Shown piece after piece: positions 34,421 through 35,068 of a stretch of 38,859 nt of DNA. How positions within the stretch are numbered: position 1 is the first letter of the stretch; every line of letters starts with the position of its first letter. Where the stretch lies: the IMG/VR virus record IMGVR_UViG_2711768001_000013. One strand, given 5' to 3'. Below the pieces are notes generated by a model, which ran no database searches, was not told the origin of the DNA, and was given only the letters and a program-made list of their open reading frames with translations. Origin of the DNA: a virus. Its lineage: Duplodnaviria > Heunggongvirae > Uroviricota > Caudoviricetes. Both the position numbers and the translations under genes were made by a program.

Positions 34421-34449
34421 TTGACAATGTACCTTTGGGATACATAATG
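34421..34449 (+). promoter_or_regulatory. pL-like promoter with embedded operator
   Basis: TTGACA (34421..34426), spacer containing the 19-bp site ATGTACCTTTGGGATACAT, -10 CATAAT (~34443..34448). Confidence 0.6.
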
Positions 34450-34885
34450 TATCTAAAAGAAACACAGCACAGGCAAGATTAAACAAAATTTGGTTGTAAC
34501 ACGGCGTATGGCACATGCGTCGTTAGCGGTCTGGGGACGTTAAAGGGGACAATCCACTCCTTGCTCGGGCAAACAAACCAGGTAGCCGGAATGTGCAAGT
34601 CAATGATGATGCTGATAAGACGCCTAACCAGCGTGGCGATTCGGTTTGACGCCTGGGAAGAGACCAGGGTGCAACGATGAGGACATTTATGGAACCGCGA
34701 CAAAGTGTGGTGCCGTAACTGGCTAAGTGCTCTCAGCGTTGTGGTGAATGCGCAGGCTGATGCGCGAAAGACATTGCAGCTAATGCGGAAAAGAGCTGTT
34801 CGGCGGGGCAATTAAACGCCCGTGAGAGTCTGAAATAACCGCAAGCCGGAGATCAGCACCGGTCACCACAACAGCCACTGCTTTG

Positions 34886-34931
34886 GCGGTACCAGTTTGT
34901 ACACTTGCTTCCGGCTGGTACCGCTCTTTTT
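34886..34931 (+). terminator. strong hairpin plus U-tract ending the pL leader
   Basis: Perfect 10-bp inverted repeat gcggtaccag / ctggtaccgc with 19-nt loop, followed by tcttttt; the U-tract runs into a boxA-like GCTCTTTTTACAA. Confidence 0.55.
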
Positions 34932-35068
34932 ACAAAACAGAGAAGAGCATCACCGGACGACGGGCTCATAACCAAATCCATCCGGGCGGCTGCCACCGCA
35001 GGTGTTCTTCTCTGTTTTGTGGAGAAACCAACCGACCTTGCAGGGTCGATATGATTAGGAGCAGCAAA

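Follow-up and report, generated by a model that had tools for sequence, protein, structure and literature searches.

Two conserved structured RNA modules between a pL-like promoter and yfdP of a lambdoid prophage

What does a lambdoid phage carry downstream of its early leftward-type promoter when no N-like gene is present? The question is raised by the virus record IMGVR_UViG_2711768001_000013 of IMG/VR (Duplodnaviria; Heunggongvirae; Uroviricota; Caudoviricetes), the 38,859 nucleotides of which are referred to here as the window. The immunity region of the window is lambdoid and of the e14 type: cro- and cII-like genes lie to the left of the repressor gene and diverge from it, and on its other side a leader stretches from a pL-like promoter to the gene yfdP. 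The original prediction, made from the sequence alone, described a leader of about 470 nt with no convincing open reading frame (ORF) and no N-like gene, and considered a structured RNA, a put-like antitermination element or a nut site for a factor encoded elsewhere. The leader indeed extends over about 475 nt from a putative transcription start near 34455 to the U-run of a terminator-like hairpin and has no conserved ORF, and the search of the ORFs downstream of pL against Pfam and PHROGs showed no N-like protein. The interior of the leader, on which that prediction did not remark, contains two highly conserved structured RNAs, termed modules A and B below. Each module is a conserved plus-strand RNA fold travelling independently among many phages; the two recur in hundreds of phages, and the place of module B behind the junction stem is precisely that at which a related phage has a real tRNA gene behind the same stem. 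It is very probable that the leader consists of conserved structured non-coding RNAs (ncRNAs) and is neither a coding nor a nut leader. The structured-RNA option comes out stronger than was proposed, with at least two independent conserved folds showing compensatory covariation and with conserved junction stems.

The sets of homologues were gathered with exact-match anchors, at least 120 loci each, and all counts of copies given below are among the matches listed. Comparative folding across the homologues supported both modules by covariation. Module A is a pseudoknotted RNA with four helices. In the alignment of 44 non-redundant sequences (alignment A2), 93.5% of the cells are paired and double changes occur at 13 pairs; the structure score was reached by none of 500 shuffles, and slid controls gave 28–49%. 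The pseudoknot itself shows a compensatory change in the window copy, where the loop and its partner read UAACC/GGUUU, as against UCACC/GGUGU elsewhere. The many G-U pairs identify the plus strand as the RNA sense. The search with the 19-nt core yielded at least 120 loci. Of the 124 copies picked via different anchors of the motif, 122 have the core unchanged; a further anchor search for greater diversity gave the same loci among the matches listed. The BLAST search with the segment at about 34488–34745 of the window found matches in P1, O157 typing phage 9, TL-2011b and others. Module A of P1 begins 2 nt after tRNA-Ile and ends upstream of ban, the match in O157 typing phage 9 stops exactly at the start of the tRNA-Arg gene, and a same-strand tRNA lies within 500 nt of the module in 43 of 124 copies. 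A crude census of terminators and ORFs downstream of module A gave controls as high as the signal. No conserved protein partner of the modules was found beyond the upstream cI-like repressor and the own genes of the locus.

Module B was aligned over 52 distinct flank pairs (alignment A3), with 97% of the cells paired and double changes in seven of the eight P1 pairs; none of 500 shuffles reached the score, and slid controls gave 30–46%. The sequence of the flank stem differs freely between loci while its complementarity is kept. Variants of P4 show compensatory changes (CCAG/CUGG, UCGG/CCGA) which, together with G-U pairs, again identify the RNA as that of the plus strand. Covariation supports the stacking of P1 and P4 and the D-like P2. 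P4 and P1 adjoin without an unpaired base between them, P1 is mostly 7–9 bp long, a connector of 2–3 nt leads to P2, and the gap between the P2 and P4 motifs, which holds the hypervariable third arm, ranges from 24 to 159 nt. The centroid fold of the window copy is a four-way junction. The loops GCUGA and UCAGC are Watson–Crick complementary, and a loop–loop contact between them is plausible. As modelled, module B has the shape and connectivity of a tRNA, the anticodon arm of which is replaced by an insertion.

The window copy of module B follows the same leader (…AGUGCUCUCAGCGUUGUGG) as the genuine tRNA-Arg of O157 typing phage 9, and its first bases, GUGG, are the first four of that tRNA. 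NCCA or CCA stands directly after P1 in 13 of 70 copies. The BLAST search with the segment at about 34726–34770 revealed about 90% identity over about 40 nt with dozens of unrelated phages, which include Klebsiella, Salmonella, Erwinia and Edwardsiella phages, the T1-like phage swi2 and Taipeivirus; swi2 and UPM2146 possess a second conserved block beyond the variable insert. An exact 16-mer of the first block occurs in at least 120 IMG/VR loci, half of them with the second block within 200 nt. Module B with an arm of 20–50 nt was also found in 32 genome contigs, mostly named Xanthomonadales, Pseudomonas and Burkholderia, with Cupriavidus and Rouxiella in addition. In some copies P1 is preceded, at a distance of about 7 nt, by a -10 box and a terminator follows closely on the module, and a terminator-like site lies within 160 nt downstream in 38 of 94 copies (12 in the upstream control); because of this, module B looks like a stand-alone small-RNA gene in those genomes. 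In 21 of 104 copies the module is located just downstream of a cI/S24 repressor gene. Hammerhead-like cores (CUACGC-CUGAUGA-stem II-GAAAC-stem III-GCGUAG) were seen by eye in the variable arm of one module-B locus (L011) and in UPM2146 (L380, about 1655–1705); they are unconfirmed, Rfam being silent at the gathering score and at E ≤ 1.

Table 1. Position of the leader modules and neighbouring features in the window.
Feature	Position	Strand	Description and basis
cI-like (ymfK-type) repressor gene	33708–34382	+	Peptidase_S24 (Pfam)
Intrinsic terminator of the cI-like gene	34394–34419 (hairpin 34394–34411)	+	7-bp stem, 4-nt loop, T-run
pL-like sigma-70 promoter	34421–34448	+	TTGACA (34421–34426), 16-nt spacer, CATAAT (34443–34448); 11/12 consensus
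Operator overlapping the pL-like promoter	34428–34444		17-bp palindrome TGTACCTTTGGGATACA; repeat search
Module A	34500–34671	+	pseudoknotted RNA of about 175 nt; alignment A2, covariation
Module A, H1	34502–34522	+	
Module A, H2		+	closes a variable domain
Module A, near-invariant 19-nt core	34581–34599	+	GGUAGCCGGAAUGUGCAAG
Module A, H3 hairpin	34620–34634	+	loop AACC pairs with GGUU 34643–34646 (pseudoknot)
Module A, H4	34652–34668	+	loop GAAGAGA
Junction stem 1	34672–34741	+	CAACGAUGAGGACAUU ... AAGUGCUCUCAGCGUUG, enclosing a variable spacer; between modules A and B
Module B	34738–34872	+	cloverleaf RNA with hypervariable arm; alignment A3, covariation
Module B, P1	34738–34747 / 34863–34872	+	
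Module B, P2	34750–34765	+	GCGC[AGGCUGAU]GCGC; 4 bp, D-arm-like
Module B, hypervariable arm	34766–34844	+	
Module B, P4	34845–34863	+	GCCGG[AGAUCAGCA]CCGGU, stacked directly on P1; general form GCCGG[AGAUCAGCR]CCGGY
Terminator-like hairpin	34885–34931	+	stem GCGGUACCAG/CUGGUACCGC, 19-nt loop, then UCUUUUU; perfect 10-bp inverted repeat
Junction stem 2	34932–35020	+	ACAAAACAGAGAAGAGCA ... UGUUCUUCUCUGUUUUGU(GG); 25-nt arms, 84% complementary (I1); precedes yfdP mRNA
Small hairpin, Shine–Dalgarno (SD) sequence and start codon of yfdP	35032–35071	+	hairpin 35032–35049; AGGAG 35057–35061; start codon 35069 (PGAP start, identical prophage)

Between modules A and B, CAACGAUGAG… pairs with …CUCAGCGUUG across a variable spacer (Table 1). 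For 30 distinct homologous arm pairs of this junction stem, the median duplex energy is -23.4 kcal/mol, compared with -8.6 for shuffled arms, and the arms covary (GAGAGCA/UGCUCUC, AAGAGCA/UGCUCUU, AAAGCGCACU/AGUGCGCUU). The same stem in O157 typing phage 9 ends 2 nt before the genuine tRNA-Arg. Junction stem 2 has the same end motifs (ACAA… / …UUGUGG) and lies upstream of all 80 sampled yfdP loci; the short ccg-GACGA-cgg stem-loop pointed out earlier is merely a 3-bp feature within its larger inverted repeat (34932–34956 / 34996–35020, I1). The fold of the segment 34872–35072 has a z-score of -6.99, and in the minimum free energy (MFE) fold the SD region would pair with CUGCUUU at 34878–34884. 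No promoter-like site was found between the U-run and yfdP.

The hairpin between the two junction stems is the one noticed in the original prediction, and its perfect 10-bp inverted repeat (34886–34895 / 34915–34924, I19 in the repeat search) is followed by UCUUUUU, as described there; in the MFE fold, the stem reaches 13 bp. Other phages have equivalent hairpins, with stems of their own, after cassettes. The likeness of the hairpin tail to boxA proved to be at chance level: the window contains 18 matches to CGCTCTTA with one mismatch, CGCTCTTT (34922–34929) among them, where 22 are expected from shuffled sequence, and the tail is not kept in the equivalent hairpins of other phages. The 13-nt rrn boxA has no match within three mismatches at the tail, and a boxA of the λ type (CGCUCUUA) occurring above chance, conserved and upstream of a boxB was not found at this leader.

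The conservation of the leader is not that of a protein-coding sequence. The 29-codon ORF with an ATG start exists (34591–34680), together with several ORFs of 26–39 codons. Its ATG sits in the near-invariant core of module A, and in homologues the same ATG opens ORFs of 10–96 codons with different frames and unrelated sequences; the 29-aa product has no PHROG family. The distances between the conserved blocks of module A are spread over all three residues modulo 3. Because the spacing of the blocks is not kept modulo 3, an antisense ORF of 110 aa (34479–34811), the “family” of which accompanies 100 of the 116 module-A copies listed, was rejected as a by-product of nucleotide conservation. No conserved protein-coding frame was found in the homologues, in which ORF lengths and block spacing vary.

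The BLAST search against phage genomes showed the leader as a mosaic and not as a single homology block. The modules recur independently in P1 and in epsilon15-like, T1-like and Taipeivirus phages. O157 typing phage 9 has module A and junction stem 1, followed by tRNA-Arg where module B would be, and module B occurs without module A in swi2 and in the Klebsiella Taipeivirus UPM2146. P1 shows the succession of junction stem and cassette twice between tRNA-Thr and tciA, including its own copy of module B behind a junction stem. Among 80 loci with identical YfdP, the upstream content is module A with an alternative cassette in 22, hairpin and junction only in 20, modules A and B in 14, junction only in 12, module A only in six and module B only in three, with three singleton combinations besides, which makes eight or more combinations. 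In cdtI and Ayreon, the alternative cassette keeps the P1 flanks and differs in its interior. This varied content upstream of identical yfdP genes and the swap of cassettes indicate that the array is built from exchangeable units. A search of 5,426 complete E. coli genomes found part of the 691-nt region in 2,664 of them, at 3,894 matching places; the leader is absent from CPS-53 and e14 of K-12.

Several observations stand beside these. Of the 3,894 matching places, 484 are on plasmids, which are probably P1-like phage-plasmids. The genes plp and upl of P1 (AF234172, about 69.5–69.93 kb, minus strand) lie antisense to two units of junction stem plus cassette, one of them with module B, and these ORF calls may be spurious or overlap functional RNAs. 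In the 2.6 kb of UPM2146 examined, no coding sequence is annotated beyond position 408.

It is fairly likely that the region between the pL-like promoter and yfdP gives a polycistronic non-coding RNA precursor, with the modules as separate RNAs. On loss of repression, the transcript would comprise module A, junction stem 1, module B, the hairpin with its U-run, junction stem 2 and the yfdP mRNA. The junction stems may serve as processing or insulating sites of the RNase III type, the tRNA shape of module B could recruit tRNA-end processing of the RNase P type, and modules A and B would be released as stable trans-acting RNAs. The hairpin and U-run would end most, or part, of the transcripts, and read-through would feed yfdP, yfdQ and the xis-like gene. 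On balance, the modules seem to be independent, processed or trans-acting units. As for the role of module B in trans, one may guess that it mimics tRNA, whether to decoy host or defence factors that bind tRNAs or to serve as a scaffold directed at them, and that the variable arm is a cargo which can be exchanged; such a decoy or scaffold function is offered tentatively and is rather unlikely to be correct as stated.

A number of points weigh against this interpretation. Module B has no canonical T-loop, D-loop or anticodon arm, its loops being AGGCUGAU and AGAUCAGCR, and the window copy has no CCA after P1. ARAGORN calls no tRNA or transfer-messenger RNA (tmRNA) in the window, and the Rfam tRNA model (RF00005) misses module B; in related loci, its matches fall only at genuine tRNA genes. 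The loop–loop contact involves invariant sequences and so has no covariation support. A real tRNA is found within 1.5 kb of just eight of 81 module-B copies. The conservation of the anchored segments is partly due to the construction of the sets, in which diversity is under-sampled. All of the functional steps, that is, expression, processing and binding, are inferred from sequence, and the promoter-proximal position of module A, with terminator-like hairpins before the downstream genes, fits antitermination in cis equally well.

That last point leads to the alternative which survives best, although it appears improbable: module A would be a cis-acting, put-like processive antiterminator that binds the elongating RNA polymerase, a functional analogue unrelated to put. 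The polymerase would then read through the hairpin at 34885–34931 and the terminator after yfdQ, and yfdP, yfdQ and the xis-like gene would be expressed without N. The lack of an N-like gene suits this proposal, as does the likeness to the put elements of HK022 and HK639 in setting, which is an RNA element just after a repressor-controlled early promoter of a lambdoid phage without N, with terminators downstream. Module A comes first after the promoter in the window; a strict consensus promoter lies within 120 nt upstream in 28 of 112 distinct contexts (6 in the control window), with the module placed 48–55 nt or 7–8 nt after it, and 38 of 116 copies stand just after a cI-like (cI/S24) gene. 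No promoter-like site intervenes between the U-run and yfdP, and beyond the array of O157 typing phage 9 come terminator-like hairpins and, after them, an ORF without an obvious promoter. The near-invariant core would suit a conserved host partner, for example, RNA polymerase itself.

The comparison with known put elements speaks against the proposal, and module A failed it at the level of sequence, profile and architecture. A profile of module A used with nhmmer found nothing in the immunity and early region of HK022 (24–32 kb, E ≤ 10) and nothing in HK639 at 28–40 kb, including the annotated putL-like RNA (E ≤ 100), and blastn-short of module A against the put regions gave only chance matches of 7–9 nt. 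HK022 put consists of two stem-loops of about 70 nt (PMC9378689), and the putL-like RNA annotated in HK639 has 126 nt, whereas module A has about 175 nt, four helices and a pseudoknot and is found in non-lambdoid contexts too; module B forms a four-way junction. Module A of P1 is deep in the ban operon and immediately precedes ban without an intervening terminator, and some copies are followed at once, by eye, by a terminator-like hairpin, as stand-alone genes are.

Two further explanations are both very unlikely. According to the first, the modules are non-functional or act at the DNA level, as decayed remnants of tRNA genes or as mosaic joints that promote recombination. BLAST similarity does begin and end at the junction motifs, the acceptor stem of the tRNA-Arg in the same slot is similar to P1 of module B, and cassettes are swapped between otherwise identical loci. 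However, the compensatory changes and the G-U wobbles, which work on one strand only, are signs that an RNA fold is under selection, and cores nearly invariant across phages of distant hosts are unexpected for decaying pseudogenes. The second explanation takes the whole region for a cis-regulatory 5' untranslated region of yfdP, riboswitch-like or acting by translational control. It can draw on the last 190 nt or so, which travel with yfdP in SfV, SfIV, ST64B and others, at every one of the 80 yfdP loci sampled, with a z-score of about -7 for the segment and the SD sequence paired in the MFE structure. However, modules A and B occur without yfdP in P1, in epsilon15-like, T1-like and Taipeivirus phages and in bacterial genome contigs, and A, B or both are missing from many yfdP loci, so at most the 3' part would be a yfdP leader.

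That the leader is a nut site (boxA/boxB) at which an N-like protein from another locus acts, or that it codes for small proteins, deserves hardly any weight: CGCUCUUU resembles boxA, H4 with its 5-bp stem and purine-rich loop is superficially boxB-like and short ORFs are present, but the boxA match is at chance and not conserved, no N-like family is encoded in the operon, the ORFs vary in frame and length, the 29-aa product matches no PHROG family and the modules are found in non-lambdoid phages as well.

Compared with known families, the leader falls outside put, nut, tRNA, tmRNA and every Rfam family. None of the Rfam 15 families, GOLLD, ROOL, Y RNA, ribozymes and riboswitches included, was found at the gathering score in the leader or in 15 related loci; module A has no Rfam 15 match even at E ≤ 10, and module B belongs to no family at the gathering score. 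At E ≤ 10, the leader gave only matches at chance level and a local 18-nt match to the rydB hairpin. Module B is like a tRNA in its four helices around a junction, with an acceptor-like P1 stacked on the 5-bp, T-arm-like P4, in its occupation of the tRNA slot of phage tRNA arrays and in the NCCA after P1 of some copies; it differs in having complementary loops in place of the canonical T and D loops and in the lack of an anticodon loop. We take its large insertion in place of the anticodon arm to be as in the topology of tmRNA and of YrlA, the bacterial Y-RNA-like molecule. Neither ARAGORN nor the Rfam models of tRNA, tmRNA and Y RNA match module B. For tmRNA, ARAGORN found none, Rfam gave none in the leader at E ≤ 10 and BLAST of the leader against E. 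coli ssrA gave none; a tmRNA origin of module A was considered and discarded, since the same comparison shows no similarity. Tag-like frames were seen only in the related arrays of two virulent phages, UPM2146 (L380, about 1300–1360) and swi2 (L004, about 1290–1340), where GCAAACGAUAAUACGUUCCUGGCAGUAGCUUAA would encode ANDNTFLAVA*, with ANEEMYLAVA* in swi2; the stretch has weak matches to the Rfam models tmRNA_permuted and beta_tmRNA (E about 0.08), and ARAGORN calls no tmRNA there.

The RydB RNA (RF00118) has a hairpin, GCCGGAGAUAAGCGCCGG, in which 17 of 18 positions agree with P4 of module B; the hairpin is next to a GGGG/CCCC closing stem, and a 5' CUUAUC is the complement of its loop (GAUAAG). 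RydB, however, is a 68-nt small RNA of the core genome (K-12, L378 2714–2781, minus strand) without P2 and the variable arm. The match covers only positions 30–47 of 61 of the model, with 13.7–17.7 bits against a gathering score of 50 (E = 0.09 to 6.9). As only 18 nt match, membership of module B in RydB was rejected, and the likeness is at most a relic, a relationship or convergence. The Pas small RNAs were set aside as relatives; their context is the late region.

In the early region of T7 and in the λ N leader, long imperfect stems cut by RNase III separate the units of a polycistronic early transcript. The junction stems resemble them as long stems between units, one of them just upstream of the ribosome-binding site of the first ORF, and differ by their own conserved ends, ACAAC... 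/ ...GUUGUGG; to our knowledge, these end motifs are not known from T7 or λ. The GOLLD and ROOL RNAs are phage- or prophage-borne, highly structured, often located beside tRNA genes and of unknown function (PMC5737381, PMC12286853). The modules share the phage-borne, highly structured character and the frequent neighbourhood of tRNA genes, but they have no Rfam match, are much smaller, form exchangeable cassettes and belong to Proteobacteria and not to Lactobacillales or rumen metagenomes. No description of the core sequences or of either motif was found in Rfam 15 or the searchable literature, about 1.4 million PubMed Central articles being outside reach. The motifs are not described by name in a catalogue of 10,006 viral candidate RNAs or in two 2026 preprints on genome language models; the modules may be present among the unnamed entries of large candidate catalogues.

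The pL-like promoter is the top sigma-70 match in the 2.3 kb scanned (33300–35600). Two copies related to its operator lie between cI and cro, at 33624–33640 and 33674–33690 (repeat families D1 and D2). Since the operator palindrome overlaps the promoter and related copies stand in the cI/cro intergenic region, control by the repressor is plausible; of the CI-controlled promoter claimed earlier, the near-consensus promoter with an overlapping operator copy was confirmed, and the control itself stays at that level. The annotation of phage Ayreon likewise marks the terminator of the cI gene as a terminator. An identical prophage is located at dusA in several E. coli genomes, in which PGAP gives ymfK and then yfdP, with 686 nt without annotation between them. 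As revealed by Pfam and PHROGs, the genes after the leader encode YfdP (no Pfam family), YfdQ/DUF2303, an ORF product of unknown kind and a PrtN/excisionase-like ORF product.

Other features of the window lie farther off. At 36330–37300, a terminator-like hairpin, AAAUGCCCCUGCGGGGGCAUUU, is found directly 3' of yfdQ, and the AT-rich segment after it encodes a 277-aa ORF with no Pfam family, assigned to PHROG 14996 (unknown function), which looks like a moron; the PrtN/excisionase-like gene is at 37329–37610. C4 antisense RNA (82 bits, 32277–32364) and isrK (64 bits, 32389–32465) were found at the Rfam gathering level on the minus strand, within a 278-aa ORF (31989–32825, minus strand) beside the immunity region, and the same pair occurs in phage Ayreon; the pairing presumably resembles the c4/icd/ant-type immunity module of P1/P7. 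At the prophage end, a gene for a Panacea-domain protein (named by PGAP in the identical prophage) has a 4-nt overlap with the stop of the upstream 139-aa ORF (37871–38290 and 38287–38859, minus strand), and the two look like a toxin–antitoxin pair of the PanA type.

In annotation, the region currently appears as empty or as short hypothetical ORFs on either strand, and plp and upl of P1 and the “hypothetical proteins” of Ayreon, cdtI and mEp460, which overlap these RNAs, call for correction. Copies of the modules occur in P1, in Stx-converting phages and in phages under development for therapy (Klebsiella, Salmonella). The modules provide two candidate families for RNA databases and raise a testable question, namely how genes downstream of pL are expressed in lambdoid phages without N. 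They also point to a layer of phage–host interaction that is based on RNA, with tRNA mimicry and possibly an anti-defence role, in the early operons. A broader proposal, which we regard as doubtful, is that two widespread and so far undescribed classes of phage ncRNA have A and B as their first members and that both belong to an unrecognised cassette system in phage–host conflict. If that is true, the modules, tRNAs, tmRNA-like segments and other P1-flanked cassettes would share one grammar of junction stem, cassette and hairpin, and the system would be situated in the early operons, or in moron-like ones, of proteobacterial phages, both temperate and virulent. Module A, whose core hardly varies, would then bind to a conserved host machine, for example, the ribosome, RNA polymerase or an RNase. 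For module B, the proposal sees a scaffold in the shape of a tRNA that host enzymes of tRNA processing would set free and whose hypervariable arm would be exchangeable cargo; it could serve as a decoy for, or an inhibitor of, host defences that target tRNAs or are linked to translation, and would evolve in an arms race.

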